Shown: positions 47,457 to 64,000, counted from the first letter of the stretch. The stretch is 64,000 nucleotides of DNA from an uncultured Polyangiales bacterium (GCA_964624885.1 CAZUZY010000004.1:1438-65437), one strand, 5' to 3'. Numbers and translations are program-made. The notes: a model not told the origin generated them from the sequence alone.

Positions 47457-49918
47457 CCGACGAGGGGGTGGCCGCCGAGCAGACGGATCTGGTCCGTCTG
47501 CATCGCTTCTCGGCCATCGTGGCGCTGGCCTGGGCGGCGTTCGCCCTGTTGCACCTCTTCATGGGTCGAAGACTCCTCGCGCTGGTCCACGTGGGGGCGG
47601 CGGCGCTGGCGGGGATCGGCGTGCTCCTCGCGCGTCGGACCGCGCGCGGCCCGTCGCTCTCGATCGTCGCGATGAGCTCGTGCGTCGCGCTGGTGGTCGT
47701 CACCGTGCTGACCGGCGGCGCGCGCGCGCCGACCATGGTGTACCTGGCCCTCCTCCCGCTCGTGACCGGCCTGTTCCGGCGGCCCCTCGTGCGGAGGACG
47801 TGGCTCGCGGTGGCGCTGCTCGCCATCGTCGCCATCCCGCCGCTCACGACGCTGCTCGGCAGCGACGTCGTCCAGCCAGGCCCCTTCGAGCAGGTGTTCG
47901 TCGTGGTCGCGCTCGCGCTGATCCTCTACGGGTTCGGCAGCGAGTGGCGGGCCTCGAGCGACGCGCTGGTGACGCTGCTCGAGGCGCGGCGACGCACGAT
48001 CGAGGGGCAGGCCGAGGAGGTCCAGCGGGCGCACGACGACGCGGTGAAGGCCTCGGAGAACAAGAGCCGCTTCGTCGCCATGACCAGCCACGAGCTGCGC
48101 GGGCCGCTCAACGGGATGCTGGGCATGAGCCAGGCGCTCGCGGACACCCGTCTCACCGACAACCAGCGCGAGCTGGTACGCGCGCTCACCACGAGCGCCG
48201 AGTCGCTCTCTCGGCTGCTCAGCGACCTGCTGGACATCGCCCGCATCGAGGCCGGACGCGTCGAGGTGGTGCTCAAGGACACCGACGTGCGCGGGCTCGT
48301 CGCCGACGTGGTCGACACCTTCGCCACCGAGGCCGACGCCAAGGGCCTCGACATCGTCGCCATCGCGGATCTCACCGTGCCCGCGGTGGTGAGCGCCGAC
48401 GCGGGCCGGCTCGCCCAGGTGCTGCGGAACCTGGTCTCCAACGCCGTGAAGTTCACCGAGAAGGGCGCGGTGACGGTCTCGCTCACCCGCGAGGAGGCGA
48501 CCCTGTGGATCTCGGTGAAGGACACCGGCCGGGGGATGAAGAAGGAGGACGTCGGTCGGATCTTCCTCCCCTTCGAGCAAGTTTCCGCCGAGCTGGTCGA
48601 CCGCCGCGCCGGCACGGGGCTCGGCCTGTGGATCGCGCGGAGCTTCGTCGAGAGCTGGGGTGGGACCATCGTCGTGGACTCGGCGCTCGGGCAAGGGACC
48701 GAGTTCCGGGTCGCGATCCCGCTCGGCCCCGAGGAGGTGAATCCACGGTTCACGACGCTGATGGGCATGCCCGTGCTCGTCGTGATCACCCAGCGGCCGG
48801 CCACCGCCCAGGCGTTCCTCGCCGTCGGTCGGGAGATCGAGGCGCGGGTGGTGCACGCCACCTCCGCCGACGATATCCTGGCCGCGGGTCGCCTCGACGC
48901 ACGGGCCCTGATCGTGGACACGGCGCACGGCGGGCTCGACCTCGCCGACGCGCTCGCGCCCCTGCGGCTCAAGGCGCGCCTCGTCCTCGCGGCGACCGCG
49001 AGTCAGCTCGCGGAGGCCGAGAAGCTCGCCGCCAAGCTCGAGGCGCGGGTGATGCTGCTCCCACCGCGCGCCTCGCGGCTGCTCGCGGCGCTCGAGGCGC
49101 CCCACCGCGCCCTCACCCACCGCCCGAGCTACCACACCCCCTCGACCGTCGACGCCACCCTGCTGGTCGTGGACGACGACGCGATCAACCGTCGCGTGGC
49201 GCGGCACGCGGCCCAGCAGCTCGGCCTGCGGGTGCTCGAGGCGGCGTCCGGCGAGAAGGCGCTCGAGGTGCTCGGGCGAGTGACGGTGGATCTGGTGCTG
49301 CTCGACCTCCACCTCGAGGGGATGGACGGCGACGAGGTCGCGCGACGCATCTGCGCGAGCCCCACCGCGCCCGCCATCATCGCCTACACGGGCAGCGTGA
49401 ACGAGGCGGACCGGCGGCGCTTGCTCGAGGCCGGCGTCACGGAGATCCTCGCGAAGCCGCTCGATCGCGGCTCGTTCCTCGGCGCCGTCAACCGAGCGAT
49501 GAACGCGCGACGCCAGCAGGCGCGCAAGACCGGCCGGTCCCTCAAGCTCGACGTGCTCGACCCCGGCGCGCTGGACGAGCTCACCAAGATCATGGGCGAA
49601 GAGGTGCCCGACATGATCACCGAGTTCCTCCCGCAGCTTCGCGCCCGGGTCGACAAGATCGTGGCGGCCGCCATCGAGGGCGAGCTCGCCCAGGTCGGCG
49701 CGGAGTCACACTCGCTCGCTTCCACGGCGGCGACCTTCGGCGCCCTGCGGGTCGCGATCATCGCGCGCACCCTCGAGGCCGCGGCCCACAAGCAGGACCT
49801 CGGCCGGGCGCGCCCGCTGTCGAGCGCCCTCGCCGAGGCGGCAGAGGAGAGCGTCCCGCTGCTCGAGGCCGAGGCGCGAGCGAGGGCCACAGATCCTCGG
49901 GCTTCTTCGCGCGTGTAA
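47453..49918 (+). CDS. Membrane-bound hybrid histidine kinase with pseudo-receiver, receiver and HPt domains
   Basis: The in-frame ATG at 47453 lies within ORF 47108..49918 and overlaps the kinase stop (ATGA). There are about 6 TM helices. The H-box is MTSHELRGPLNGMLG, the N-box is LVSNAVKFT, and the G-boxes are DTGRGM and GTGLGLWIA. The receiver is LLVVDDDAINR...LVLLDLHLEGMDG. The HPt region is AESHSLASTAATFGA. Confidence 0.9.
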   Translation: MTDEGVAAEQTDLVRLHRFSAIVALAWAAFALLHLFMGRRLLALVHVGAAALAGIGVLLARRTARGPSLSIVAMSSCVALVVVTVLTGGARAPTMVYLALLPLVTGLFRRPLVRRTWLAVALLAIVAIPPLTTLLGSDVVQPGPFEQVFVVVALALILYGFGSEWRASSDALVTLLEARRRTIEGQAEEVQRAHDDAVKASENKSRFVAMTSHELRGPLNGMLGMSQALADTRLTDNQRELVRALTTSAESLSRLLSDLLDIARIEAGRVEVVLKDTDVRGLVADVVDTFATEADAKGLDIVAIADLTVPAVVSADAGRLAQVLRNLVSNAVKFTEKGAVTVSLTREEATLWISVKDTGRGMKKEDVGRIFLPFEQVSAELVDRRAGTGLGLWIARSFVESWGGTIVVDSALGQGTEFRVAIPLGPEEVNPRFTTLMGMPVLVVITQRPATAQAFLAVGREIEARVVHATSADDILAAGRLDARALIVDTAHGGLDLADALAPLRLKARLVLAATASQLAEAEKLAAKLEARVMLLPPRASRLLAALEAPHRALTHRPSYHTPSTVDATLLVVDDDAINRRVARHAAQQLGLRVLEAASGEKALEVLGRVTVDLVLLDLHLEGMDGDEVARRICASPTAPAIIAYTGSVNEADRRRLLEAGVTEILAKPLDRGSFLGAVNRAMNARRQQARKTGRSLKLDVLDPGALDELTKIMGEEVPDMITEFLPQLRARVDKIVAAAIEGELAQVGAESHSLASTAATFGALRVAIIARTLEAAAHKQDLGRARPLSSALAEAAEESVPLLEAEARARATDPRASSRV

Positions 49919-49948
49919 GGACTCAGACCTTCCACCGTTGGAGAGATC

Positions 49949-52117
49949 ATGAGACGCCTCGCCCACCTGTTCGGCGTGACCTGCCTGGTCGCGCTCGTCG
50001 GCTGCGGTCCGACCACCACCACCTACGTGAAGAGCCCCGACACGACCCTCGGTCGCGTCGTGGTGTACCGGAACGGCATCGCCTATTTCGAGCGCTATGC
50101 GCACGTCGAGGGCAACGTCCTCAAGGTCTCGGTGCCGACCGACAAGCTCGACGACTTCCTCAAGTCGTTGACCGTGACCGACACCAAGACCGGAGAACCG
50201 GCGCCGATCTCGTACCCGACCACCCTGCCGGCCTCCGCGACCGGGCTCGTCGACCTCGAGATCCGGCTCGGCGGCCAGGCGCCCCACGACCTGAAGCTCA
50301 CCTACGTGACCGAGGCCCCGAGCTGGAAGCCGAGCTACCGCATCGTGCTCGGCAACGACGGCAAGATCACGATGGAGGGCTGGGCGATCGTCGACAACAC
50401 CTCGGGCGAGGACTGGGTCGACGTGCGCCTCGGCGTCGGGTCGAGCTCCGCGCTCTCGTTCAAGTTCGACCTCAAGTCCGTGAAGGTGGTCAATCGCGAC
50501 ACCCTGCACGCGGACGAGCTGTTCGCGACCGCGCCGCCGATGGGCGGCACGACCTACGGCGGGGAGGGCGAGGTGCAGGTCGCGACGCTCGACGACAAGA
50601 CCGCCGAGAAGATCGCCCTCGCCGACACCAACAAGAAGCTGCCGTCCGCGACAGGAACGCCCGAGCCGCAGAAGAAGCCGCCGGTCTACGTGGGCGGTCC
50701 CATGGGCGGCCCGGGTGCGAGTGGCGGCAAGATGAAGGGCCTGCCAGGTCAGCCCGCCGGCGTGACGCCGGCGACGCCCGCGCCGGTGATGCCACCGCCG
50801 CCGCCCGCGGACCCGGCGTTCGAGGCCACGGCCTACAAGCTCGCGGCCAGCAAGAAGCCGGTGGTGGTGGAAGGCTTCGCGACGGAGGCGGACGTGGACA
50901 AGGCCGGCGCCTCGCTCGAGCGCGCCGGACGCGTGCGCCTGCAGCTCATCGCGCGCGGCGTGCCGCCCGAGAACGTGGTCGCGGTCGGCAAGGGGCTCGT
51001 GCCGGGCAAGAACGGCGGCGTCCGCATCGTCGAGGTGACCCCGAAGGCGCCGCCCAAGGGTCTCCCGGCCGAGGGTGGTGCGGGCGACCCCATCGGCACC
51101 TCGCACTTCGAGTCGTCGGGCAAGATGAGCGTCAAGAAGGCCAACTCGGCGATGATCTCGATCGTGAAGGGGGCGACCAAGGGAGAGGTGGTCTACTTCT
51201 ACGATCCGGAGAGCCCGCGGGGGAACCTGACCTTCCCGTTCCGGGCGATCCGGCTCGAGAACCCGACCGAGAGCACCCTCGAGAGCGGGCCCGTCACCGT
51301 GTTCGGCGAGGGCAAGTTCATCGGCGAGGGCATCAGCGAGCCGATCCCGCCACACGCCTCGGCGTTCATCCCGTTCGCGCTCGACCGCCAGATCGTGGTC
51401 GAGACCAACGACGGTCAGAAGGACGACATCCTCCGGGTGCTCGCCGTGCAGCGGGGCGTGTTCTCGACCGAGAGCAAGCACACCCGGACCACCAAGCTCG
51501 TGTTCCACAACCGGCTGACCCACAAGGCCAAGATCAACATCCGGCACACGACGCCCAAGGGCTACACGCTGGACGAGCAGGGGTTCGTCTCGGTGCAGAA
51601 GATCGGGGCGGCCCACGTGCTCGGCATCGAGGTCGACCCCGGCGCCAAGAAGGAGATCGTGATCTCCGAGACGACCCCGGTGTTCAAGACCATCGACCTG
51701 CGCTCGCCAGGGGGGCTCGACGCGGTGAAGGCGTACGTCTCGTCCGCCGCCACCGCCGGCCCGCTCAAGGAGCAGGTGGCCCGCATCGTCAAGCTGCAGC
51801 AGGAGATCGGCAACCTCGAGCAGCGCATCGAGACCACCAAGGAGCAGCTCGGCGAGTACCGCACGCGCATGGACGAGCTCCACATGCAGCTCGTCACCCT
51901 GAAGGCGGTCAAGAGCGCCGGCCCGCTGATGAAGGACCTCGAGAAGAAGATGCAGGAGACCAGCGACAAGGTGTCCAAGACCACCCTCGACCTGGTCGAC
52001 CAGCAAGAGAAGCTGATGATGGCCAAGATCCGCCTGCAGGACGCGATCTCCGAGCTCACGCTCAAGAAGGACGAGGAGCCGAAGGGGGATCCGAAGGCAG
52101 ATCCGAAGAAGACCTAG
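49949..52117 (+). CDS. DUF4140/DUF4139-like lipoprotein with C-terminal coiled coil
   Basis: MRRLAHLFGVTCLVALVGCG provides a lipobox. VVVYRNGIAYFERYAHVEGNVLKVSVPTDKLDDFLKSLTV and APSWKPSYRIV...GWAIVDNTSGEDW match my memory of the DUF4140/DUF4139 (MuiA-like) family. The central roughly 200 aa are Pro/Gly-rich. The C-terminal 150 aa form a heptad-like coiled coil. Confidence 0.8.
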   Translation: MRRLAHLFGVTCLVALVGCGPTTTTYVKSPDTTLGRVVVYRNGIAYFERYAHVEGNVLKVSVPTDKLDDFLKSLTVTDTKTGEPAPISYPTTLPASATGLVDLEIRLGGQAPHDLKLTYVTEAPSWKPSYRIVLGNDGKITMEGWAIVDNTSGEDWVDVRLGVGSSSALSFKFDLKSVKVVNRDTLHADELFATAPPMGGTTYGGEGEVQVATLDDKTAEKIALADTNKKLPSATGTPEPQKKPPVYVGGPMGGPGASGGKMKGLPGQPAGVTPATPAPVMPPPPPADPAFEATAYKLAASKKPVVVEGFATEADVDKAGASLERAGRVRLQLIARGVPPENVVAVGKGLVPGKNGGVRIVEVTPKAPPKGLPAEGGAGDPIGTSHFESSGKMSVKKANSAMISIVKGATKGEVVYFYDPESPRGNLTFPFRAIRLENPTESTLESGPVTVFGEGKFIGEGISEPIPPHASAFIPFALDRQIVVETNDGQKDDILRVLAVQRGVFSTESKHTRTTKLVFHNRLTHKAKINIRHTTPKGYTLDEQGFVSVQKIGAAHVLGIEVDPGAKKEIVISETTPVFKTIDLRSPGGLDAVKAYVSSAATAGPLKEQVARIVKLQQEIGNLEQRIETTKEQLGEYRTRMDELHMQLVTLKAVKSAGPLMKDLEKKMQETSDKVSKTTLDLVDQQEKLMMAKIRLQDAISELTLKKDEEPKGDPKADPKKT

Positions 52118-52118
52118 A

Positions 52119-52155
52119 CGACGAAGGGAGCGCCCGGGGGGGCGCTCCCTCGTCG
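52119..52155. terminator. Strong GC-rich hairpin between convergent genes (candidate bidirectional terminator)
   Basis: cgacgaaGGGAGCGCC-cggggg-GGCGCTCCCtcgtcg has a 9-bp perfect core stem that extends to about 15 bp with one bulge. It starts 2 nt after the DUF4139 stop and ends 13 nt before the MCP stop. Confidence 0.6.
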
Positions 52156-52167
52156 CGCGCGCCGTCG

Positions 52168-53895
52168 CTAGAACTCGTCGCAGTGAGCGGCGGCGAGCTG
52201 CGGCTTCGGGGCCTTCGCGAGGCGGCGCAGCGCGGGCTTGCGGGCGACCTCGCGGACGACGACCGGCGGCCGCGGCGCCGCCACCGCGGGCTCCGCGCCC
52301 GTGTCGAGGCGGAAGCGCGCGACCAGCTCCTGCAGCTGCTCGCCCTTGCTGGCGAGGTTCTGGGCGGTCGAGGAGAGCTCCTCGGTCTGCGCGGCGTTCG
52401 ACTGGGTGACCTGGTCCATCTGGCTGACGGCCTTGTTGACCTGCTCGATCCCGGTCGTCTGCTCGTTGGAGGCCGCGGCGATCTCGCCGATCATGTCGGT
52501 GACCCGCTTCACCGAGGTCACGATCTCGCGCAGCGTCTCCCCGCTCGTGTTCACGTGCTGGGAGCCGGCGGCGACCTTCTCGGTGGAGTCGCCGATGAGG
52601 CCCTTGATCTCCTTGGCGGCCGCCGCGCTCCGCTGCGCGAGGTCACGCACCTCGGCGGCGACCACCGCGAAGCCCCGCCCCTGCTCGCCGGCCCGCGCCG
52701 CCTCGACGGCCGCGTTGAGGGCGAGGATGTTGGTCTGGAAGGCGATCTCGTCGATGGTGGTGATGATGTCGCCGATGCGGCGGGACGACTGGGTGATGTC
52801 GCCCATCGCCTCCACCGCCGATCCGACCACCGCGCCGCCCTTCTCGGCGACGGTCCGCGAGCCGGCGGCCAGCTGGGCCGCGTGCTTGGCGTTGTCGGCG
52901 TTCTGACGGACGGTGGCCGCGACCTCCTCCAGGCTCGCCGCGGTCTCCTCGAGGCCCGAGGCCTGCTCCTGGGCGCCGGTCGAGATCTGGTCGGCGGCGC
53001 CCGAGAGCTGCTGCGAGGCCGAGGCGAGCTCGTCGGCGACGGTCCGCACCTCGCTGAGGGCCTGGTGGATCGCCCCGACCGCGGTGTTCAGGGACGAGGC
53101 GAGGGCACCCAGCTCGTCGTGGCTCTCGACCTCGAGGCGCTGGGTGAGGTCGCGGGCCGCGACCCCCTCCAGCACGCCGACCGCCTTGCGCAGCGGACGC
53201 GCGATGAGGCCGGCGATGAAGACGCCGAGGCCCATCGAGAGGAGCACGCCGAGGATGGTGCCGGCGACGTTCAGGCGCGTGGCCGAGGCCGCGGTCGCCG
53301 CCCCGGCCTGGTCCATCTCGCCGGCGATGTCGGCGATGATCTGCGCCTGCTCGTCGAACGAGCGCACCGCGACGAGCAGCTTGGGGCCGGCGTCGTCGCT
53401 GGAGTTCTTCGCGGCCTGCTGGTGCAGGGCTGCCTTCTGGTCCGGGTCGGTGGCGACGGCCGCCTCCCGCGCCAGCGTCAGGGTGCGCTCGGCCGCGACG
53501 AGGTAGGCGGTCGCGTTGGTCTGCAGCGCCTCGAAGGCCCGCCGCTCGTCACGTCCGTCCTTGGTCACGGTGAGGTTGGTCGCGCCGTAGTCCTTCAGGA
53601 TCTTGTCCATCTCCCCGCGCAGACGGGCCTGCGTGACGATCATCTCGTCGATCTTGTGCGCGTCGGTGTAGTTCAACCCGTTGATCGCGTTCGCTCGGTA
53701 ACGCGTGAGCTTGGAGGCGAACATGGCCAGCTGCGTGCCGGGCACGGTGTAGTCGACGTACATCCCCCGCATCTTGTCGGTGACGCGGTGCAGGCTGTTC
53801 GCCGAGAGCACGCCGAGCGAAATCATCAGGACGCTCACCAGCGCGAAGGCCGTGAGGAGCTTCGCCCTCACCTTGAGGTTCGTGAACCATTCCAT
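52168..53895 (-). CDS. Methyl-accepting chemotaxis protein (4HB-type sensor, HAMP, signalling domain)
   Basis: The ORF is 52168..54012; I prefer the ATG at 53895 ([28 protein letters not shown]). A second TM plus HAMP follows ([24 protein letters not shown]). The conserved hairpin is [34 protein letters not shown]. Confidence 0.92.
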
Positions 53896-53948
53896 GTGCA
53901 GCTCCCTCCGGCAGCGCAGGCGCCGGTCGAGCTCGAGCGGTGCACCGG

Positions 53949-53972
53949 CCGTGCCCACCGGAGTGGGCACGG
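53949..53972. terminator. Perfect hairpin ccGTGCCCAC-cgga-GTGGGCACgg
   Basis: It has a 10-bp stem and a 4-nt loop. It lies in the 195-bp gap between the AraC/GyrI gene stop (54091) and the MCP start (53895), both on the minus strand. It could be a terminator or an operator. Confidence 0.35.
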
Positions 53973-54090
53973 GCCTTGCCGATTGAGCGGCGCTCCCCGC
54001 GATTTGCGCCAAACCGTTGACGCGGCGGCGGGCGCGGCGACAAGCGCCGAACGCCTGCGCCGCGCTCTTCCTGCCAGTTGCTGCCAGCGG

Positions 54091-55002
54091 TCAGGCGAGC
54101 GGGACGTAGAGCTCGGTGCGCAGCGCCTCGGGCGGCGTGGTGGAGGGATCGTTGCGGTAGATCTCGAAGCTGACCCCCTCCGCCAGACGGTGCCCGCTCT
54201 CGGGGAGCCACCCGCCCATCAACCGCGCCCACGCGTCGCCGAGGCCCGAGTACGGGCCGACGTGGGTCGCGCAGGCGTAGCGACCGGCGGCGATGCGCTG
54301 CTCGGCGAGTCCGGCCGGCAACGGCGCGCCTTCGGGCACCGTGATGGCCGCGTCGGAGCAGAGCTCCTCCTTGGGCTTGCCCTCGGGGTCGTCGTGGTAG
54401 ATCGCGATCATCTGCGTCGAGAGGCCGAACAGCCCGGCGGGCCCGGCGAGGGCGCCGAGCCGACCGAAGGCCTCGCCGATGCGATCGTAGGGCCCCACGT
54501 GACGGACGGTGAACACGCGTTGCTCGGACAGCTGCTTGATCTCGATGTTCATGGGCGTGCCTCCTCGGGTGAAACGGAGGGTGACGGGAGCGCCGCCCTC
54601 GCGGAAATGGACGCCGCAGCGGGCGGCGATCTCGGTGCGGGTGCGCTCGGGGCCACACGCCTCGACCGGCTTGCGGAAGCCCGATGGCGAGTCGCCGTAG
54701 GCCTGCCGGAAGGCCCGGGTGAAGGCCTCGTGGGTCTCGTAGCCGGCCTCGAACGCGATGCGGGTCACCGCCTCGTCGGTGCGGAGCAGGCGCAGCGCGG
54801 CGCGCTCCAGGCGCAGGCGCCGGTGCAGCTCGAGCGGGGTCTCGCCGACGAGGCCGCGGAAGATGCGGTGGAAGTGCAGCGGGGCGAGCGCGGCCTCCCG
54901 GGCGAGCACCTCGAGCTGCAGAGCGTCGTCGAGCCGGGCGGCGACGTGGTCGACCGCCCGCTGCACGGCGGCTTCGTAGAACGATCGGGTCTCTTCCTTC
55001 AC
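54091..55002 (-). CDS. AraC-family regulator with GyrI-like effector domain
   Basis: The ORF is 54091..55089; I prefer the GTG at 55002 (VKEETRSFY). The HTH region is LAREAALAPLHFHRIFRGLVGETP...VTRIAFEAGYETHEAFTRAFRQAYGDSP. The GyrI-like C-terminal part has IKQLSEQRVFTVRHVGPY and FEIYRNDP. Confidence 0.88.
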   Translation of the reverse strand: MKEETRSFYEAAVQRAVDHVAARLDDALQLEVLAREAALAPLHFHRIFRGLVGETPLELHRRLRLERAALRLLRTDEAVTRIAFEAGYETHEAFTRAFRQAYGDSPSGFRKPVEACGPERTRTEIAARCGVHFREGGAPVTLRFTRGGTPMNIEIKQLSEQRVFTVRHVGPYDRIGEAFGRLGALAGPAGLFGLSTQMIAIYHDDPEGKPKEELCSDAAITVPEGAPLPAGLAEQRIAAGRYACATHVGPYSGLGDAWARLMGGWLPESGHRLAEGVSFEIYRNDPSTTPPEALRTELYVPLA

Positions 55003-55133
55003 GAGACCGAGGGTAGCGACTGCGGTGGGGCCCGCTTGACGGGGATTGCGATTTTTCGCGCGAGCCGGGGGTGCGAACCGCGCTCGCAACCTTGCACGTC
55101 CGGCGGGCGCGTCTGCATGCCAGGCTCCCGCCC

Positions 55134-55523
55134 ATGTCCCGCTACCTCGTCCTCTCGACCGTGCTGACCTGGGTGATGTTGCTCACCGCGAGCCTGCTCC
55201 GCTCGCGGGGGTGGAGCCTCGCCGGTCTGCGGGTCGCGTTCGGCAACCGTGACGATCTCGCAGAGGCCACCCCGCTCGCCGCCCGCGCCGACCGCGCGGC
55301 GAAGAACATGCTCGAGAACCTGCTGCTCTTCGTGGCGGTCTCGGCGGCGGTCGCGCTGAAGGGCGCCGCCGCCCCCGCCCAGCTTTCGCTGGGGGGCGCG
55401 GTGTTCTTCTTCGCCCGGGTGGCCTATTTCGTCGTCTACCTCGCGGGCGTGCGGTACCTCCGCACCCTGATCTGGGCCGTGGGGCTGGTCGGCGTGGGGA
55501 TCGTCGGCGCGGCGGCGCTCTAG
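55134..55523 (+). CDS. MAPEG-family membrane protein
   Basis: The ORF is 55071..55523; I prefer the ATG at 55134 (MSRYLVLSTVLTWVMLLTASLL). It has RADRAAKNMLENLLLFVAV and ARVAYFVVYLAG, with four hydrophobic helices. It is divergent from the AraC/GyrI gene. Confidence 0.75.
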   Translation: MSRYLVLSTVLTWVMLLTASLLRSRGWSLAGLRVAFGNRDDLAEATPLAARADRAAKNMLENLLLFVAVSAAVALKGAAAPAQLSLGGAVFFFARVAYFVVYLAGVRYLRTLIWAVGLVGVGIVGAAAL

Positions 55524-57262: not shown

Positions 57263-57862
57263 ATGGCAATCTGGCTGGAAGACGACGACGACAAGAAGCC
57301 GGAGATCGAAGCGAAGCCCTCGGAGGCGATGGAAGAGCGCCTCTTCAAGTCGCGCTCGGTGTTCGTGTTCGGCTCCATCGACATGAAGCTCGCGCAGCGC
57401 GTCACCGCGCAGCTGATCGCCCTCGCGACCGAGAGCGAGTCGAAGGAGATCCGCGTGTTCGTGAACTCGCCCGGCGGCCACGTGGAGTCGGGGGACACCA
57501 TCCACGACATGATCCGCTTCGTGCCGTGCCCGGTGAAGATCATCGGCACCGGCTGGGTGGGGAGCGCCGCGGCGCACATCTACCTCTCGGCCCCCAAGGA
57601 GCGGCGGCTCTGCCTGCCGAACACGCGGTTCCTTCTCCACCAGCCGAGCGGTGGCGCGGGCGGTCAGGCCACGGACATCGCCATCCAGGTCGAGCAGATC
57701 CTCAAGGCCAAGCGCCGCATCCAGAAGGCCATCGCCGACGCGACCGGGCAGACCCTCGACAAGGTGATCGCCGACACCGAGCGCGACTACTGGATGAGCG
57801 CGGAAGAGGCCAAGGAGTACGGCGTGGTCTCGCGCATCATCAAGACGCAGTCCGAGATCTGA
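57263..57862 (+). CDS. clpP: ATP-dependent Clp protease proteolytic subunit paralogue
   Basis: 199 aa. ClpP-family motifs are present: [36 protein letters not shown] (Ser), [18 protein letters not shown] (His) and [17 protein letters not shown] (Asp). It has an unusual acidic N-terminal extension, [18 protein letters not shown]. Confidence 0.88.
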
Positions 57863-57930: not shown

Positions 57931-58449
57931 GTGGAGAAGAGCGACTGGGACTGCCTGCACCAGCTGGTGGCCGACTGCGCCCTCGCGCTGTTCGAGGGCG
58001 TGGAGGTCCCGCTCGAGTACCGGGGGCTCGTGCCGGGCAGCACCACCGCGACCACCATCGCGGTGCTCGGGTTCGCCGGGGAGCACCTCCGCGGAGCTGT
58101 CGTGCTCGAGGCGCCCGAGACCGTCCTCACGCGGTCTCTGCCGTGTGGCGAGCCGACCAGCGAAGCGCTGCTCGACTGGGCGGGTGAGCTCGCCAACCAG
58201 CTGTGCGGGCGGATCAAGAACCGCCTGCTCACGCACGGGGTCGTCATCCAGCTCGCAACGCCGACCGTCATCAGCGGGCAGGTCACCACGGTCACCGCGG
58301 AGCCGACCGCGAAGGCGGCCCACCAGTTCCAGACCGCGCGCGACGAGGCGATCGCCGTCCGCTTCAGCGCCCTGCCGAGCCCGGAGCTCGTGTTCCTGCC
58401 CGTGGTGGAGTCCAACGCCGCGGACGAGGGCGACTGCCTGCTGTTCTGA
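57931..58449 (+). CDS. CheX-like (chemotaxis phosphatase fold) protein
   Basis: The in-frame GTG at 57931 lies within ORF 57526..58449; no ATG is available in frame. IAVLGFAGEHLRGAVVLE...LLDWAGELANQLCGRIKNRLLTHGVVIQLATPTVISG parallels the CheX core (...GELGN...G...TPPTVV.G) as I remember it, including the E..N pair. Confidence 0.6.
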   Translation: MEKSDWDCLHQLVADCALALFEGVEVPLEYRGLVPGSTTATTIAVLGFAGEHLRGAVVLEAPETVLTRSLPCGEPTSEALLDWAGELANQLCGRIKNRLLTHGVVIQLATPTVISGQVTTVTAEPTAKAAHQFQTARDEAIAVRFSALPSPELVFLPVVESNAADEGDCLLF

Positions 58450-58451
58450 CC

Positions 58452-59381
58452 TCAGGGGACCCGCACCGACGAGGTGCCGTCGAGGTCGGGCTCGACGAAG
58501 ATCCAGCGGGCCTGCGGGATCTCCGCGCGCAGGCGGGCCTCGAAGTCGTTGATGATGCGCGACACCGCCCGGGCCTCGAGCTCCGCGCGACAGGAGATCT
58601 TGAGGGCCACGAGCACCTCACCCGGCCCCTGCTGCACCGTGATCACCTCGCGCACGTCGTCCACCCGAGGGTCCTCCACGGCGAGGCGCTCGACGACCGC
58701 CCGGATGCGGGGATCGGCGCTCTCGCCGATGAGCAGTGACTTCACCTCCATGGTGAGGAAGATCGCGACGCCGATGAGCACCACGCCGACCAGGATGGAG
58801 CCGAGGGCGTCGAACCGCCCGTCGCCGGTCTTCCACGAGGCGAAGAACGCGAAGAACGCGAGGACGGTGCCGATGAGCGCGGCCGCGTTCTCGCCGAACA
58901 CCACGATGAGATCGCTCTCCTTGGAGCCGACGACGAAGGCGAAGAACCCCTGCTCGCCCTTGAGCGCGCGGATCTGTCGCACGTTGGCCCCGGTCACCAG
59001 GATCTCGAGGACGAGGGAGAAGCCGAAGATGGTGAAGCCGACCCAGGCGTGCTCGATCGGCGCCGGGGCGGCGAGCTTGTGCACGCCCTCGTAGATCGAG
59101 AACAAGCCGCCCGCGGAGAACAGGAGCAGGGCGACCAGGAACGACCAGAAATACAGCTCTCGCCCATAGCCGAGCGGGTGGGTGGTGTCGGGCGGCCGGC
59201 GCGCGGCGCGGACGCCGATCAGCAGGAGCACCTGGTTGAGCGAGTCGGTGGTCGTGTGCAGGGCCTCCGCGAGCAGCGCGCCCGACCCGGTGTAGAACGC
59301 GGCCGCGAGCTTCACCGCGGCGAGGGCCAGGTTGGACAGCAGCGACTGCAGGATGTGCGACGTGTCGTGGGCCTGGCTCAC
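58452..59381 (-). CDS. Cation diffusion facilitator (CDF) family transporter
   Basis: 309 aa with six TM helices. AAFYTGSGALLAEALHTTTDSLNQ and HPLGYGRELYFWS are typical CDF motifs. A C-terminal cytoplasmic domain follows (VREVITVQQGPGEVLVALKI). Confidence 0.9.
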   Translation of the reverse strand: MSQAHDTSHILQSLLSNLALAAVKLAAAFYTGSGALLAEALHTTTDSLNQVLLLIGVRAARRPPDTTHPLGYGRELYFWSFLVALLLFSAGGLFSIYEGVHKLAAPAPIEHAWVGFTIFGFSLVLEILVTGANVRQIRALKGEQGFFAFVVGSKESDLIVVFGENAAALIGTVLAFFAFFASWKTGDGRFDALGSILVGVVLIGVAIFLTMEVKSLLIGESADPRIRAVVERLAVEDPRVDDVREVITVQQGPGEVLVALKISCRAELEARAVSRIINDFEARLRAEIPQARWIFVEPDLDGTSSVRVP

Positions 59382-59571
59382 CGCGCGAGACTACCCGGGG
59401 CGTCCGCCGGGCAGGAGCCACGCACCACCCCTCCGACGAGCTCTGCGACATTCCCTGATCGAGAACAGGGTGGCGCGATGTGTTCGCGCTCGCGCACGGC
59501 TTGCTCACGCGTCGTCGGCGACGCGCCCGGGGCCTCGACGAAGCCTCGACGAACATCGACGGCGATTGTCG

Positions 59572-60807
59572 ATGGCACCACTGAAGGCACCTGCCCACAC
59601 GCAGCCGATTCGTCGCCTGCGCGACCTCTGCGTCGACGAATTGCCCAGCGCGAGCGAGGCCAGGAGCCAATCTTCGAATGGCTCGGCCATTGCTTCGCGG
59701 ACCGACGTGCCTTTGTCCGCGAAGAAGCCCGCCGCTGCGTCCGCCCGGCGGCTGCGCGTCGATGGCGGCCGAGACTCCCGATCCACGCGGATCCTGGAGG
59801 TGGTGCAGGCCGGTGTGATCGCGCTGGACGGGGCCGGGTTCGTGCTCGAGTGCAACCCCTTCGCGTGCGCGATCCTCGGCGTCGACGTGGGCGACGTGCT
59901 GGGGCTCCCGATCGAGCAGTGCATCGCCTCGGTGGCGGAGCTCCGTCGCCGGACCGGCAAGGACGGTCGCGGTGAGATCGCGTACACGCGCCCCGACGGC
60001 CGCACGCTGACGCTCGGCTTCGGCTTCTCCGAGCTCGAGGCCTTGCCCGACGCGGTCGGCCTGGTGCTCCTGTTCCAGGACGTGTCGGCGCTGGCGGGGC
60101 TCCGTCGCGAGCGCGATCGCTTGCTGCAGATGGCCGCGGTGGGCGAGGTGCTCCCCGCCATGCTGCACGAGCTGCGCAACCCGCTCGCCGCCGTGATGAC
60201 CATGCTCGAGCTCCTCGTGGAGGAGGCCTCGGGACACCTGCAACACGACCTGCACACGGTGCTCGCCGAGGTGCGGCGACTGATCCTCAGCCTCCAGGGC
60301 ATCGGCGGCTTCCGCGGCGAGATCGCGAGCGCCCACCACCAGGCCATCGACGAAGCCATCGAGGAAGCGGTCGAGATCCTGCAGCCCACGGCGGCGCGAC
60401 GCTCGCTCACGCTGACCGCAGCGGTCGAGACGATGCCGCTCTTGCCGCTCGCCCGTGAAGCCATCAAGGGCGTGGTGTTCAACCTCGTCCGCAACGCGAT
60501 CGACGCCTGTGGCCCCGGTCAGAGCGTCGAGGTCCGCGCGCGGCTCACCCGGGAGGGCTGGCTCGAGCTCGTGGTGATCGACACCGGCAAGGGCATGGAA
60601 GAAGAGGTGCTCCAGCACTGCACCGAGCTGTTCTTCACCGACAAGGAGAGCGGCTCCGGCATCGGCCTCGCGATCTGTCGTCAGGTGGCCGAACGGGCGC
60701 ACGGCGAGCTCTCGATCGTCAGCGCGAAAGGAACTGGGACCACGGTCACGTTGCGCGTGCCTGCCCGCACGCGAGGAGGCACGACATGTCACGAGTCGAC
60801 AGTCTGA
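59572..60807 (+). CDS. PAS-domain sensor histidine kinase (first gene of the Roadblock operon)
   Basis: The ORF is 59332..60807; I prefer the ATG at 59572, since upstream codons overlap the divergent CDF gene. The PAS region is ILEVVQAGVIALDGAGFVLECNPFACAILG. The H-box is AMLHELRNPLAAV, the N-box is LVRNAIDA, and the G-boxes are DTGKGM and GSGIGLAIC. Confidence 0.85.
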   Translation: MAPLKAPAHTQPIRRLRDLCVDELPSASEARSQSSNGSAIASRTDVPLSAKKPAAASARRLRVDGGRDSRSTRILEVVQAGVIALDGAGFVLECNPFACAILGVDVGDVLGLPIEQCIASVAELRRRTGKDGRGEIAYTRPDGRTLTLGFGFSELEALPDAVGLVLLFQDVSALAGLRRERDRLLQMAAVGEVLPAMLHELRNPLAAVMTMLELLVEEASGHLQHDLHTVLAEVRRLILSLQGIGGFRGEIASAHHQAIDEAIEEAVEILQPTAARRSLTLTAAVETMPLLPLAREAIKGVVFNLVRNAIDACGPGQSVEVRARLTREGWLELVVIDTGKGMEEEVLQHCTELFFTDKESGSGIGLAICRQVAERAHGELSIVSAKGTGTTVTLRVPARTRGGTTCHESTV

Positions 60808-61151
60808 ACCGGATCTTGCGCGCGCTGCAGAGCTCGTCGCCGGACGTGGAGGCCTGCGCCCTCATCTCCGAGGACGGCCTCATGATCGCGAGCGCGCTGC
60901 CCCAACACGTCGACGAGTCACGCATCGCCGGCATGAGCGCCACGCTCTCGAGCCTCGGCGCGCGCGCCGCGAGCGAGCTCGAGCGCGGAGAGGTGCAGGA
61001 GGTCCTGGTGCGGGGCACCGAGGGCTACGCCGCGATGATGAGCTCAGGCCACGGCACCCTCTTGCTCGGGCTCGCCAGCAAACAGGCCAAGCTGGGCCTG
61101 CTGTTCCTCGACATGCGTCGAGCCATCGAAGACCTACGCAAGGTTCTGTGA
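60786..61151 (+). CDS. Roadblock/LC7 (MglB-like) domain protein
   Basis: 121 aa. The typical pattern is present: VEACALISEDGLMIASALP...ESRIAGMSATLSSLGARAASELERGEVQEVLVRGTEGYAAMM. It overlaps the kinase 3' end by 22 nt. Confidence 0.88.
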   Translation: MSRVDSLNRILRALQSSSPDVEACALISEDGLMIASALPQHVDESRIAGMSATLSSLGARAASELERGEVQEVLVRGTEGYAAMMSSGHGTLLLGLASKQAKLGLLFLDMRRAIEDLRKVL

Positions 61152-61161
61152 GAGGATCATC

Positions 61162-61923
61162 ATGTCCAACGCGACCAATGTCACGCTGTTCGAGGGCCCC
61201 GGCCACAAGAACATCCTCCTCGAGGACTTCAACAAGGGCGGTCTCGCCGTCCAGGCGAACCAGCACATCGTCATCCACAACAAGGCCGGCATGATCCTCG
61301 ATCCGGGAGGGCACAAGGTCTACTCGAAGGTCCTCTCGGCGACCCTGCAGCAGCTGGGCAGCGCCAAGCTGCAGTACCTGTTCCTCTCGCACCAGGATCC
61401 GGACATCGTCGCGGCCACCAATGGCTGGCTGATGACCACCGACGCGACGGCCTACTGCTCGGCCCTGTGGACCCGCTTCGTGCCGCACTTCGGTCTGGAT
61501 CGACTGGTCGAGACGCGTCTCCTGCCGATCCCGGACGAGGGTATGAAGATCGACCTGGATGGGTGCCTCCTCGAGATCATCCCGGCCCATTTCCTTCATT
61601 CACCTGGCAACTTCCAGGTCTACGATCCGGTCAGCAAGGTGCTCTACACCGGCGATCTCGGCGCCTCGCTCGGCGCGCCGGGCTGGGAGGTGACCGACTT
61701 CGAGGCGCATCGCGCCTACATGGACGGGTTCCACGCCCGGTACATGGCGGGCAACGCGGCCATGCGCGCGTGGGTGAAGCGCGCGAGCAAGCTGGACATC
61801 GAGACCTTGGCGCCGCAGCACGGCAGCGTGTTCAAGGGCAAGGACATGGTCGAGAAGTTCTTCCGCTGGGCCGAGACGTTCCAGTGCGGCCTGGACCTGA
61901 TCGACAGGTTCTACGGAGGCTGA
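61162..61923 (+). CDS. Stand-alone metallo-beta-lactamase-fold domain of the flavodiiron / oxygen-binding di-iron (ODP) type
   Basis: 253 aa. NQHIVIHNKAGMILDPGG, YLFLSHQDPDIVAA, IPAHFLHSPGNFQVYDPVSKVLYTGDLGAS and LAPQHGSVFKG line up with the diiron MBL domain of flavodiiron proteins (from memory). There is no flavodoxin domain. Confidence 0.75.
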   Translation: MSNATNVTLFEGPGHKNILLEDFNKGGLAVQANQHIVIHNKAGMILDPGGHKVYSKVLSATLQQLGSAKLQYLFLSHQDPDIVAATNGWLMTTDATAYCSALWTRFVPHFGLDRLVETRLLPIPDEGMKIDLDGCLLEIIPAHFLHSPGNFQVYDPVSKVLYTGDLGASLGAPGWEVTDFEAHRAYMDGFHARYMAGNAAMRAWVKRASKLDIETLAPQHGSVFKGKDMVEKFFRWAETFQCGLDLIDRFYGG

Positions 61924-61924
61924 G

Positions 61925-62854
61925 ATGCCCACCCTCTTGGTGGTCGAGGACGAGCCCGTGCTTCGCGCGTCGGTGGTGCGCGGGCTCAGCAAGCTCGCGG
62001 GCGTGGACATCGTCGACGCCGGCACCAAGGCCGAGGCGCGCAAGCTCATCGCCGCCATGCCACCGAGCATGCTCATCTCGGACCTCGATCTCCCCGACGG
62101 CTCGGGGGTCGAGCTCCTCGTCGATCTCGAGCGGCGGGGGCTGCGGATCCCCATCGTCTTCGCCTCGGGTTTCCTCCGGCGCTTCGAGATCCCCGCGCGC
62201 GAGGACATCATCCTGCTCGAGAAGCCGGTCACCCTCGCCACGCTGCGCAAGCTGGTGACCGAACACCTGGGCGGCCGCTCGGAGCACACCTCCCCCTTCG
62301 GACTGGCCGACTACGTGCAGCTCGCGGGCCTCGGACGCCGCTCGGTCCACCTCGTCGTGAGCCGGGAGGGCGTGCAGGTGGGTGAGGTCGTGATCCGGGA
62401 CGGAGAGGCGTGGCATGCCCACGACGCCAAGGGCGACGGACCCGTCGCGTTCCGCCGCCTCGTGACGGCGCGGGACGTGACGGTGGAAGCGACGCACCCG
62501 ACCCCGACCGCTCGCACGCTGTCGGGCTCCTGCGAGCAGCTCCTGCTCGAGACAATGCGCCTCGAAGACGAGCAGAGCCGCGACGAGGAGGCGGCCGATC
62601 TGGCGTGGGACGATCTCGCGACCCGTCGACGCTCCTCGCTGCCGCCGGCGGCGCCGGCTCGCCCCTCCGAGCCACGGACGGCGGCCTCGGTGCAGCGGTC
62701 GTTCGAGGAGCTCTACGAGCGCGGTGTCGAGGCCCTCCTCGACAAGCGCTACGACGACGCGTTCACCGCGTTCAGCGCGGCCGCGGAGCTCCACCACACG
62801 CCGAGCCTCGACGTGAACCTGAGCCGGCTGCGCTCGATGGGATACGGTCGATGA
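61925..62854 (+). CDS. Response regulator receiver fused to a DUF4388 (PATAN-like) domain
   Basis: 309 aa. The receiver is LLVVEDEPVLR...MLISDLDLPDGSG...EKPV. Next comes FGLADYVQLAGLGRRSVHLVVSREG..VGEVVIRDGEAWHAHDAKG.GPVAFRRLV, which resembles DUF4388. The tail is TPR-like. Confidence 0.8.
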   Translation: MPTLLVVEDEPVLRASVVRGLSKLAGVDIVDAGTKAEARKLIAAMPPSMLISDLDLPDGSGVELLVDLERRGLRIPIVFASGFLRRFEIPAREDIILLEKPVTLATLRKLVTEHLGGRSEHTSPFGLADYVQLAGLGRRSVHLVVSREGVQVGEVVIRDGEAWHAHDAKGDGPVAFRRLVTARDVTVEATHPTPTARTLSGSCEQLLLETMRLEDEQSRDEEAADLAWDDLATRRRSSLPPAAPARPSEPRTAASVQRSFEELYERGVEALLDKRYDDAFTAFSAAAELHHTPSLDVNLSRLRSMGYGR

Positions 62855-63450
62855 AGCACGAGCTCCCCTTCGAGCACAGCGGCCCGCTGCCGGGCGCGAT
62901 CGCCGCCTGTCTCGGCGTGCTCCTGCTCGGCGCGTTCGTGTGGTCGGCGGAGCTCCCGGCGGCGGCCTCGCCGCCACGACCGACGCCCTCGGTGATCGTG
63001 ATCGAGAAGCCGGTGCCCGTGACGACGCCGACGGCGTCGGCGAGCGCAATGCCCACGCCGAGCGCCAGCGCGGTGGTGGCCTGCGCGCCGCGCGCGTCGG
63101 TGCCGTTCGCGCAGGGCCAGATCGAGGCGCCCACGGAGGCGAAGGAGCTGCTCGCGCCCCTCGTCGCCTACGCCGATGCCCACCCCGAGGCGATCCTCCT
63201 GGTCGACGGGCACGCCGACGCGACCGGCGCCGAGGAGGTCAACGTGGTGCTGAGCCACCACCGAGCCCGGGCGATCGCTGCGCTGCTCGAGGCCCAGAGC
63301 CTCCCCAAGGCTCGACTGGTGGTGCGAGGCTTCGGTGCGTACCAGCCCCTCGAAGGCAAGGCCGAACAGGCCGCCGACAATCGACGCGTGACCGTGCAAG
63401 TGCGGGGGTTGCCCGCCTGTCCTTCGACCCCGACGGAGAAGACTCCATGA
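62851..63450 (+). CDS. OmpA-like (peptidoglycan-binding) membrane-anchored protein
   Basis: The in-frame ATG at 62851 lies within ORF 62410..63450 and overlaps the upstream stop (ATGA). A TM helix (GAIAACLGVLLLGAFVW) and a Pro/Thr/Ser linker come first. The OmpA-C-like part is ILLVDGHADATGAEEVNVVLSHHRARAIAALL...VVRGFGAYQPL...NRRVTVQV. Confidence 0.8.
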   Translation: MKHELPFEHSGPLPGAIAACLGVLLLGAFVWSAELPAAASPPRPTPSVIVIEKPVPVTTPTASASAMPTPSASAVVACAPRASVPFAQGQIEAPTEAKELLAPLVAYADAHPEAILLVDGHADATGAEEVNVVLSHHRARAIAALLEAQSLPKARLVVRGFGAYQPLEGKAEQAADNRRVTVQVRGLPACPSTPTEKTP

Positions 63451-64000
63451 TGCTCGTCACGCTGATCCTCGGCACCGCTGGAGCAGCGACCTTCTTCACC
63501 TCGGGCTTCCTGCTCGCCGCGCGGCGCGGCGTCGGCGCACGCGACGCGCTGCGCGAGGACGCCGAGGTGGCGACCGCGAGCCTTCGTGCCCAGGTGGCCG
63601 AGGTCGATCGGCTCCGCGACGAGACCCACCGCCTGCGCGCCGACGAGGCCAAGCTGGCCGCCGAGCTCTCGGGCCTCCGCAGCACGGCCGATGCCGCCCG
63701 CCACTACGCGGACGGGCGCTCGGTGGAGACGGCGGCGCTCCAGGCCGACACGCAGTCGCTGCGCGCCGACCACGCGCGGATCCAAGGCGAGGCGCAGGCG
63801 CTGCGGCAGGAGCTCACCCGCACCCGCGACCTCTTGCAGCGCAACCAGGACGACCTGGCCGCGGCGCGCGCCGAGCTCGCCGAGCTCGTGTCTCGCTTCG
63901 CCGAGCGAGGCAAGGGTCAGGCGGAGGGGCAGCTGCGCGAGGTGCAGCGCGTCCTCGCGCCACTGATGGAGAAGGAGCGGCTCGCCAAGGCGCTCGCGGC
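63447..64000 (+). CDS. Membrane-anchored coiled-coil protein; partial, continues beyond the window end
   Basis: Absent from the ORF track because it has no stop in the window. My translation from the ATG at 63447 (which overlaps the upstream stop) gives MMLVTLILGTAGAATFFTSGFLLAARRG. Uninterrupted Ala/Arg/Glu/Leu heptad-like sequence follows (LRAQVAEVDRLRDETHRLRADEAKLAAEL...) to base 64000. Confidence 0.7.
   Translation, partial: MMLVTLILGTAGAATFFTSGFLLAARRGVGARDALREDAEVATASLRAQVAEVDRLRDETHRLRADEAKLAAELSGLRSTADAARHYADGRSVETAALQADTQSLRADHARIQGEAQALRQELTRTRDLLQRNQDDLAAARAELAELVSRFAERGKGQAEGQLREVQRVLAPLMEKERLAKALA

Follow-up and report, generated by a model that had tools for sequence, protein, structure and literature searches.

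What does a Roadblock protein do in an operon that places it beside a di-iron protein and no GTPase? A 2014 survey found hundreds of bacterial Roadblock/MglB homologues without a linked GTPase, none of them characterised at that time (PMC4316618), and one such gene lies in the 64,000-nucleotide stretch of DNA analysed here (the window), within what the earlier note read as a six-gene, overlapping, one-strand operon. Its coordinates and every overlap and gap were reproduced, and Pfam bore out all of the domain identities: six co-directional plus-strand open reading frames encode a PAS histidine kinase (HK), a small Roadblock (R1), a di-iron protein of the ODP family, a response regulator joining a receiver (REC) to a PATAN (DUF4388) domain, an OmpA-like protein with a transmembrane (TM) helix, and a TM coiled-coil protein. 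HK and R1 overlap by 22 nt, R1 and ODP lie 10 nt apart and ODP and REC-PATAN 1 nt apart, while ATGA overlaps join the regulator to the OmpA-like gene and the latter to gene 6, which runs off the window. Inside the cluster no plus-strand motif resembles a promoter or a terminator, and Rfam gave no match; the presumed promoter region is the divergent intergenic region at 59382..59571, between the kinase gene and a cation-efflux (CDF) gene on the minus strand (58452-59381). This region carries a perfect tandem 11-mer, GCCTCGACGAA twice at 59532-59553, which occurs nowhere else in the window (chance expectation 0.12) and is absent from L009, a locus 94%-related to the window. The nearest MCP gene to the operon lies 5.5 kb away on the opposite strand and is not conserved.

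The ODP gene (61162..61923, plus strand) specifies a stand-alone metallo-beta-lactamase fold of 253 aa that matches the whole Pfam ODP model (PF19583, 5e-68, positions 1-194 of 194). Its metal-site motifs are intact (H77-Q-D-P-D81, H143/H146, D165 and Q219-H220), with these residues invariant among 30 homologues, and comparison with solved structures (6QRQ from T. maritima, 3e-66; 6QNM from T. denticola, 1e-58) shows the motifs HQDPD, xHFxHS, GDxGA and PQHG to be the same or nearly the same. By sequence, then, it is closely homologous to di-iron proteins of solved structure that sense O2/Fe(II). R1 (60786..61151, plus strand), a stand-alone Roadblock/LC7 protein of 121 aa (Robl_LC7, 1e-13), finds its best solved relative in a Thorarchaeota Roadblock (7F8M, 7e-28) and scores 4e-8 against CvnB5 and just 0.07 against MglB, which on sequence criteria puts it much closer to archaeal and CvnB-type Roadblocks than to MglB. 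More than 1000 database clusters match it at E<=1e-10, and the 120 best of these are nearly all 121 aa long and bear generic annotation only.

The last two genes encode membrane proteins. The OmpA-like product (62851..63450, plus strand; OmpA 7e-14, with YiaD/Pal/MotB-type NCBIfam matches) is a bitopic inner-membrane protein with a short N-terminus, a TM helix at 15-31 by hydropathy, a Pro-rich linker and a periplasmic OmpA-like domain; motifs N-x2-LS-x2-RA (131-139) and NRRV (177-182) predict that this domain, past its TM anchor, binds peptidoglycan. Gene 6 (63447..64000, plus strand) contributes to the window only the first 184 of 318 aa, and its 3' end, at window-equivalent position 64403, was recovered from L001, a contig 100% identical to the window over 59001-64000 that extends beyond its end. 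The earlier description of a coiled-coil membrane protein is right as to the TM helix (3-24, followed by RRG) and the coiled coil (~150 aa), but the protein is really a membrane-tethered second Roadblock (R2m): a divergent Roadblock domain at ~193-310, lying wholly beyond the window end, is the conserved part, the coiled coil being of very variable length. An AF2 model of the C-terminal domain (pLDDT 78) has alpha-beta-beta-alpha-beta-beta-beta-alpha topology, and Foldseek ranks M. xanthus MglB (6HJM; E 2e-5, TM 0.7, rmsd 3.0 A) at the top of its matches. When 40 R2 C-terminal domains were pooled (32 membrane-type and 8 soluble-type), 18 matched Robl_LC7 and 11 LAMTOR5, and hhalign relates the R2 to the R1 family at E 4e-4 over 101 columns.

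The kinase (59572..60807, plus strand; 411 aa, or 366 aa from the alternative GTG start at 59707 chosen by the JGI gene caller) is cytoplasmic, with no TM segment detected, and combines PAS_8/PAS_9 with HisKA (2e-8) and HATPase_c (4e-24) domains; its catalytic motifs are intact (H-box His199, N 304-311, G1 337-342, G2 361-366). The regulator (61925..62854, plus strand; Response_reg 9e-11, DUF4388 26.1 bits against a cut-off of 25) consists of REC (5-83), PATAN (125-217), a Pro-rich linker and a conserved C-terminal TPR-like hairpin (~259-309). The REC catalytic residues are intact, and among 34 orthologues the acidic pocket (E8/D9), the phospho-Asp (D53) and the Lys (K100) are conserved; Pfam matches Response_reg in 34/34, DUF4388 in 32/34 (best 1e-8) and TPR in 5/34. 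Phosphotransfer from kinase to regulator is suggested solely by gene co-occurrence: loci with the REC-PATAN gene usually contain a kinase as well. PixG, PixE and PatA likewise unite REC with PATAN/DUF4388, a protein-binding output domain, which implies a non-transcriptional output (bioRxiv 10.1101/2021.06.11.447907). Unlike these PatA-type regulators, the window protein has the order REC-PATAN rather than PATAN-REC, carries the extra hairpin, and belongs to an operon with kinase and ODP genes, not to a chemotaxis-like one.

The co-occurrence check proposed in the earlier note was run on 82 related loci from Myxococcota, Pseudomonadota, Acidobacteriota and Planctomycetota (taxon labels being those of the MAG records); since there are at least 574 ODP relatives and this census stops at the closest 80 (at least 62% identity), it describes a subfamily. 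In 74/82 loci, spread over at least four phyla, the gene immediately 5' of ODP is R1, and 11 loci (this contig counted) preserve all six genes in the same order; together these figures place the arrangement far beyond chance. Around the pair, gene content varies. In 22 loci, 19 of them from Pseudomonadota, R1-ODP-OmpA-R2m stands without kinase or regulator; 18 loci combine the kinase pair with OmpA-R2m in varying gene order; 13 run HK-R1-ODP-REC-PATAN and then into a ParA-like ATPase and a soluble R2 (L027 has ATPase and R2 domain in one fused protein); and a further 13 have R1-ODP only. R2 is present in 62/82 loci, HK orthologues adjoin R1-ODP in ~38/82, and the kinase is missing beside the pair in about half. 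Permuted gene order separates two modules: in three loci (L021, L041 and L043) R1 stays with OmpA-R2m, and ODP with HK and/or the PATAN protein. The six genes, though taken together in the earlier note, do not form an indivisible system. R1-ODP is its core, surrounded by a mosaic of other modules: a replaceable anchoring module, either the OmpA-like protein with TM-coiled-coil-R2 or a ParA/MinD-like ATPase with soluble R2, and HK with REC-PATAN as an optional add-on, mainly in Myxococcota and Acidobacteriota.

The account of these patterns that we find most plausible, although we hold it tentatively, is that the six genes specify an oxygen/iron-sensing system scaffolded by Roadblocks and independent of GTPases. 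ODP, to judge from its homologues, would sense O2/Fe(II); R1 would bind ODP and associate with R2 through Roadblock-Roadblock contacts, by analogy with the heterotypic MglB-MglC and LAMTOR complexes (PMC7949163), so that the sensor would be tethered to a fixed platform. In the window this platform would be the cytoplasmic end of the TM-coiled-coil protein, held by the peptidoglycan-binding OmpA-like domain of its inner-membrane partner; in sister loci it would be the ParA/MinD-like ATPase, which the Roadblocks of those lineages possibly regulate. In a gammaproteobacterial clade without R2, R1 is far more diverged (76-82 bits against at least 129 bits) and ODP is not, an argument from divergence that comes from this one clade. 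The window ODP may also act as accessory sensor for an otherwise sensor-poor cytoplasmic PAS kinase, which would phosphorylate REC-PATAN; the PATAN output would be protein-protein interaction rather than transcription, its possible target being the Roadblock platform itself or a motility or polarity machine. The more specific proposition, that the Roadblocks are GTPase-free heterotypic adaptors docking a di-iron O2/Fe(II) sensor on a positioned platform, whether a peptidoglycan-anchored tether or a ParA/MinD-type ATPase, is possible but rather doubtful. Counting against the explanation we favour are the 13 R1-ODP-only loci, where the pair evidently can work without a linked R2, and the chance that the kinase's PAS domain senses alone.

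The earlier note saw an envelope or cytoskeletal structural output in the last two genes, and a linear pathway of this kind would lead from ODP and kinase through REC-PATAN to the OmpA-like and coiled-coil proteins as agents of envelope or cytoskeletal remodelling. It is consistent with the translationally coupled gene order, with the intact peptidoglycan-binding motifs and with the action of PATAN domains on membrane machines (bioRxiv 10.1101/2021.06.11.447907). Yet 22 loci have R1-ODP-OmpA-R2m and neither kinase nor regulator, which makes it likelier that the OmpA/coiled-coil pair anchors or scaffolds the sensor than that it is a phosphorelay output; the exchange of this pair for a ParA-like ATPase and soluble Roadblock in 13 loci, and the conservation in gene 6 of the Roadblock domain rather than of coiled-coil length, further argue against a linear pathway, which we consider unlikely. 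Since the classical role of Roadblocks is that of GAP or platform to a small GTPase, R1 and/or R2 might instead regulate an unlinked GTPase in a cryptic MglA/MglB- or conservon-type system with ODP and kinase as input, a view to which the frequent proximity of MglB homologues to PATAN proteins (PMC4316618) and the CvnA-CvnB-like HK-Roadblock order (PMC13343842) lend some colour. Unbiased neighbour clustering, however, brought up neither a GTPase nor DUF742 nor any further conserved family within ~7-8 kb of ODP across the 82 loci, and tblastn with an MglA-like probe of approximate sequence matched nothing at E<1, either across the 64-kb window or across 88 loci taken with ~10 kb on each side. 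The lack of GTPase and DUF742 genes noted earlier extends beyond the window end, where L001 shows the genes 3' of gene 6 to be convergent and none to be a GTPase; a GTPase immediately downstream would, for the earlier note, have made this a standard MglA/MglB-type unit. With R1 nearer to archaeal and CvnB-type Roadblocks than to MglB, we think a hidden G-protein circuit improbable.

Still less credible is a catalytic or protective ODP, scavenging O2, NO or peroxide or acting as a hydrolase, with neighbours that merely regulate or localise it: the fold and a distant kinship with flavodiiron O2/NO reductases speak for this, but neither a flavodoxin domain nor an electron donor accompanies ODP, the match to the sensor family is full-length with its atypical metal motifs conserved, and tight linkage to signalling proteins holds in 79/82 loci. 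Fortuitous adjacency of functionally independent genes, which has the mosaic nature of the locus in its favour and nothing else, is effectively refuted by overlapping stop and start codons and a neighbourhood conserved across at least four phyla.

The sensor-tethering account finds partial parallels in described systems. The window protein shares with the T. denticola and T. maritima ODPs the same Pfam family over its full length and, apparently, the character of a stand-alone sensor needing a partner to act. Muok 2019 reportedly describes known ODPs as coupled to CheA by way of a cytoplasmic chemoreceptor that is itself sensor-less. In that setting ODP senses O2 and acts on a signalling kinase complex of chemoreceptor and CheA (PMC7666581). 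The invariant partner here is a Roadblock protein, and no MCP or chemotaxis gene stands beside ODP, either within the operon or among the conserved neighbours at the 82 loci. Actinobacterial conservons (AGPS; CvnA kinase, CvnB Roadblock, CvnC DUF742, CvnD GTPase, sensors CvnE/F) also place a kinase before a Roadblock, and may resemble the cassette in having a stand-alone accessory sensor for a sensor-poor kinase, as CvnF8 activates a sensor-less one (PMC13343842); the cassette differs in lacking DUF742 and GTPase, in its host phyla and in a conventional HisKA/HATPase_c kinase with a cognate REC protein. The suggestion that ODP occupies the conservon GTPase position stands as a positional analogy only; about half of the loci have the Roadblock-sensor pair and no kinase. 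With the MglA/MglB/MglC module of Myxococcus xanthus the cassette shares the Roadblock fold, gene 6 superposing best on MglB, a genomic association with PATAN proteins (PMC4316618) and probably, by analogy with MglB-MglC, a complex of two different Roadblocks (PMC7949163); but it has no MglA, R1 is remote from MglB, and a TM helix with a coiled coil tethers one of the two Roadblocks to the membrane. HGbRL of Methylacidiphilum infernorum, a globin-Roadblock fusion, likewise joins an O2-binding sensor module to a Roadblock/LC7 presumed transmitter, although it is a haem protein, fused and confined to one genus, in contrast to a di-iron sensor in separate genes (PMC4476040).

The two alternative accessory modules correspond, purely by analogy, to the device types of HubP/FimV and ParC/ParP, with which there is no sequence relationship and whose cargo would here be a Roadblock/ODP complex. 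In those systems a peptidoglycan-anchored landmark and a ParA-like ATPase position signalling arrays (cf. bioRxiv 10.1101/2025.10.27.684771).

Our literature search found no paper linking ODP with Roadblock, in agreement with the earlier impression that this is not a described system; ODP paired with a small Roadblock and no GTPase forms a widespread, apparently undescribed signalling cassette built from known parts. It offers a concrete partner and context for one large, extremely conserved orphan Roadblock family, and it would carry ODP-based O2/iron sensing past chemotaxis, both into two-component signalling with a PATAN output and into membrane-anchored complexes that have no kinase. If the docking reading is true, at least four bacterial phyla would have a previously unrecognised class of cytoplasmic oxygen sensor that is anchored in space, and the large pool of 'orphan' bacterial Roadblock/MglB proteins would gain a first functional context. 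The ParA-like version hints that Roadblocks may regulate SIMIBI-class ATPases in bacteria, paralleling their GTPase role. Hosts include myxobacteria, methanotrophs, Competibacter, nitrifiers and purple sulfur bacteria, many of them typical of oxic-anoxic interfaces.

Six plus-strand open reading frames, read from the sequence, run from 59572 to the end of the window (G+C ~70%), with junctions exactly as an earlier, sequence-only note had described them: the kinase stop and the Roadblock start overlap by 22 nt, the gene for the di-iron protein (ODP) is preceded by a 10-nt gap and the regulator gene by a 1-nt gap, and the OmpA-like and coiled-coil genes are each preceded by an ATGA overlap. Purine-rich, Shine-Dalgarno-like stretches are visible by eye upstream of most starts. 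The kinase start is ambiguous, either ATG 59572 or GTG 59707 (the choice of one gene caller), and the first ~60 residues show no conservation among orthologues. Because the upstream cation-efflux gene is divergently transcribed, the 190-bp gap at 59382-59571 is the likely promoter region; inside the cluster, a motif scan returned no plus-strand promoter-like or terminator-like motifs and an Rfam scan returned no families. A perfect tandem of the 11-mer GCCTCGACGAA (two copies, 59532-59553) precedes the kinase ATG by 19 nt, and there is a further copy (91%) at 59630. Elsewhere in the window the exact 11-mer is not found (0.12 expected), and no other related locus has the 22-mer, not even the 94%-related myxobacterial locus L009; the repeat may be a site for a regulator or may be due to chance. 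No second copy of the system was found within the window.

Pfam and NCBIfam searches bore out every domain call of the earlier note. The kinase (gene 1) is cytoplasmic, with no transmembrane segments, one PAS domain, an H-box histidine (His199) and intact N, G1 and G2 boxes. Gene 2 (hereafter R1) encodes a minimal Roadblock/LC7 protein of 121 residues that, among solved proteins, is most similar to archaeal Roadblocks (7F8M, 7e-28) and CvnB5 (4e-8); its match to MglB is marginal (0.07), and database annotations of its family are generic only. The gene 3 product matches the ODP family across the whole model (5e-68) and is close to both solved oxygen-binding di-iron proteins (6QRQ, 3e-66; 6QNM, 1e-58), sharing identical or nearly identical HQDPD, AHFLHS, GDLGA and PQHG motifs that are invariant across 30 homologues. 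Gene 4 encodes a receiver domain (E8/D9, D53, K100) followed by a PATAN (DUF4388) domain and, after a Pro-rich linker, a TPR-like hairpin conserved at the C terminus; among 34 orthologues, all carry the receiver, 32 DUF4388 and 5 a TPR match. In the kinase, receiver and ODP, the catalytic and metal-binding motifs are intact. The gene 5 product combines a transmembrane helix (residues 15-31) with an OmpA-like domain bearing peptidoglycan-binding motifs.

The ODP protein sequence, looked up by exact match, recurs on longer metagenomic contigs, and from locus L001, which matches the window with 100% identity over positions 59001-64000, we recovered the 3' end of gene 6, as the earlier note had proposed. 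The complete product, 318 residues long, has a transmembrane helix (residues 3-24) followed by RRG, continues as a long coiled coil and ends in a conserved domain of ~120 residues. Four lines of evidence identify this last as a second, divergent Roadblock domain. Its AF2 model (pLDDT 78) has an alpha-beta-beta-alpha-beta-beta-beta-alpha topology; Foldseek against the PDB ranks M. xanthus MglB chains first (E 2e-5, TM 0.7, rmsd 3 A) and Ragulator/Gtr Roadblock domains next; in a pooled set of 40 C-terminal domains of this second type (R2; 32 membrane-type, 8 soluble-type), 18 match Robl_LC7 and 11 LAMTOR5; and the profile of the gene 6 domain aligns with that of the R1 family (E 4e-4, 101 columns). 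Since positive charges follow the transmembrane helix, we infer from the positive-inside rule that the coiled coil and Roadblock domain are cytoplasmic. A search for full-length gene 6 homologues gave 8 matches, coiled-coil words saturating the candidates; sequences derived from the loci themselves, and profiles, were used instead.

The operon belongs to a conserved cassette with two Roadblock domains. An ODP alignment scanned against one genome per GTDB species yielded at least 574 relatives, of which the best 80 (62-94% identity; the closest ODP subfamily only) were taken with 10-kb flanks. The window proteins, together with profiles for both R2 types and for a ParA-like protein, served as queries against the six-frame open reading frames of the loci, and all neighbouring frames were also clustered without prior assumptions; taxon labels are those of the MAG records. 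R1 lies directly upstream of ODP in 74 of 82 loci and within about 5 kb in 79, and 62 loci carry a second Roadblock domain. Beyond these, recurrence across the 82 is limited to the kinase, the REC-PATAN regulator, the OmpA-like protein and an ATPase of the ParA/MinD-like kind; GTPase, DUF742, MCP and cyclic-di-GMP families do not recur.

Several architectures emerge. R1-ODP-OmpA-R2 with the membrane type of R2 (R2m) and no kinase or regulator accounts for 22 loci, 19 of them in Pseudomonadota (including Methylococcaceae, Competibacter, Chromatiaceae and Rhodomicrobiaceae). Kinase, REC-PATAN and OmpA-R2m occur together, in various gene orders, in 18 loci of Myxococcota or 'deltaproteobacteria', 11 of which have the exact order of the window, while the order kinase-R1-ODP-REC-PATAN-ParA-like-R2s, with a soluble R2, is found in 13 loci, mostly Myxococcota with one Holophagaceae. 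R1-ODP stands alone in 13 loci of mixed hosts; a HemW-like radical SAM gene and an outer-membrane beta-barrel gene beside such loci in gammaproteobacteria reflect housekeeping synteny and are not parts of the system. ODP alone is found in two, one being that of Labilithrix luteola (L006 / L023, CP012333, ~11.74 Mb; 69% identity by BLASTP, 68% by tblastn), a member of the same subfamily with no Roadblock neighbour. The GAF-EAL gene that follows it suggests an alternative, cyclic-di-GMP-linked use of the sensor, and its record name, 'CDP-abequose synthase', is probably a misannotation. Duplications also occur: a tandem R1-ODP-R1-ODP in a Holophagaceae locus (L082), two R1-ODP pairs about 3.9 kb apart in each of L069 and L080, and, in a single myxobacterial MAG, a six-gene locus (L009) plus one of the R1-ODP-soluble-R2 type (L010).

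The soluble R2 protein, ~200 residues long, has a C-terminal domain related to the gene 6 Roadblock domain (hhalign E 3.7e-6), and its best Pfam matches, mostly sub-threshold, all fall in the Roadblock clan. In a Phycisphaerales MAG (L027 10662-12008), the Roadblock-like R2 domain, separately encoded in myxobacterial loci, is fused to the ParA/MinD-like ATPase. Soluble R2 proteins (L007 12563-13159 and homologues in ParA-like loci) conserve a basic N-terminal motif, approximately SDDLxLARxLSRRL. This motif is reminiscent of peptides by which ParA-type ATPases are activated. Separately, a 'Candidatus Methylophosphatis' MAG (L058 8414-9931) carries an AAA_22 P-loop ATPase (ExeA-like) and R1 in one uninterrupted reading frame, either a true ATPase-Roadblock fusion or a frame with an internal start for R1.

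Permutations of gene order bear on how the components are connected. Because R1 keeps with OmpA-R2m, and ODP with the kinase and/or PATAN protein, in L021, L041 and L043, and because L036 has the order ODP-R1-PATAN-OmpA-R2m, the arrangement suggests two functional links, one between R1 and the R2 anchor and another between ODP and the kinase or regulator, with an R1-ODP contact bridging both. One gammaproteobacterial clade (L039, L046, L050, L059, L066, L073 and L079) has neither R2 nor OmpA; there R1 scores 76-82 bits, versus at least 129 bits in all 59 R2-containing loci, and ODP is as conserved as elsewhere; the divergence of R1 in this single lineage faintly hints at the R1-R2 link.

How does the cassette compare with known systems? 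Having neither GTPase nor DUF742, the locus falls outside the definitions of both the MglA/MglB module and the conservon. The ODP is a bona fide member of its family, with a coupling unlike the known coupling of ODP to chemoreceptors, and the regulator shares PATAN with PatA-type regulators, but in inverted domain order. There is a precedent in a globin-Roadblock fusion (PMC4476040), where an O2-binding module is joined to a Roadblock domain. Because none of the papers searched contains both ODP and Roadblock/MglB, and R1 annotations are generic, we judge this widespread cassette of known parts to be apparently undescribed.

We tentatively favour, with somewhat less than even confidence, a picture in which ODP is an O2/Fe(II) sensor, tethered through Roadblock domains to a platform and accessory to a kinase with REC-PATAN as its output. 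The solved ODPs were reportedly presented as O2 and/or Fe(II) sensors by Muok in 2019. The window ODP would sense O2 and/or Fe(II) as these homologues do (PMC7666581). R1 would bind ODP and meet R2 by Roadblock-Roadblock association, as in the MglB-MglC and LAMTOR complexes (PMC7949163), and through these contacts the sensor would be held at an inner-membrane platform anchored in peptidoglycan; in sister loci a positioning ATPase of the ParA/MinD type would take the place of that platform. In this window ODP may also be an accessory sensor of the PAS kinase, much as CvnF8 stimulates CvnA8, a sensor-less kinase, in conservons that contain a Roadblock protein (PMC13343842). The kinase would phosphorylate REC-PATAN, which might then bind a target protein; the Roadblock platform is one possible target. 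PATAN has been demonstrated to serve as an output domain that binds proteins (bioRxiv 10.1101/2021.06.11.447907), and PATAN genes are known neighbours of MglB homologues (PMC4316618).

The earlier note had instead read the operon as a sensory input wired to an envelope or cytoskeletal structural output. That the OmpA/coiled-coil pair is the output is the main rival reading but seems unlikely to us: loci without a kinase exist, and in others the pair is swapped for the ParA-like module. Less probable still is a cryptic, unlinked GTPase acting with the Roadblock proteins. The genes downstream of gene 6 are convergent and encode a lipoprotein-like, a Cys-rich and a TPR protein, none with a GTPase domain, so the immediately downstream GTPase for which the note had left room is absent; neighbours in the 82 loci, clustered all against all without bias, included no GTPase partner, and tblastn with an MglA query had no match at E<1 either in the window or in any locus. 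A linked GTPase is absent from the cassette.

Other genes of the window lie nearby. Just upstream of the operon lie a ClpP-family protease gene (57263-57862, plus strand) and, after it, a gene for an orphan CheX-like phosphatase (57931-58449, plus strand), and a transmembrane chemoreceptor lies 5.5 kb from the operon; the upstream CheX, ClpP and MCP genes were ruled out as parts of the system because they are not conserved beside R1-ODP elsewhere. A 2495-aa open reading frame at 47680-55167 (plus strand) is a high-G+C artefact, overlapping real minus-strand genes for an MCP (52168-54012) and an AraC/GyrI-like regulator (54091-55089).
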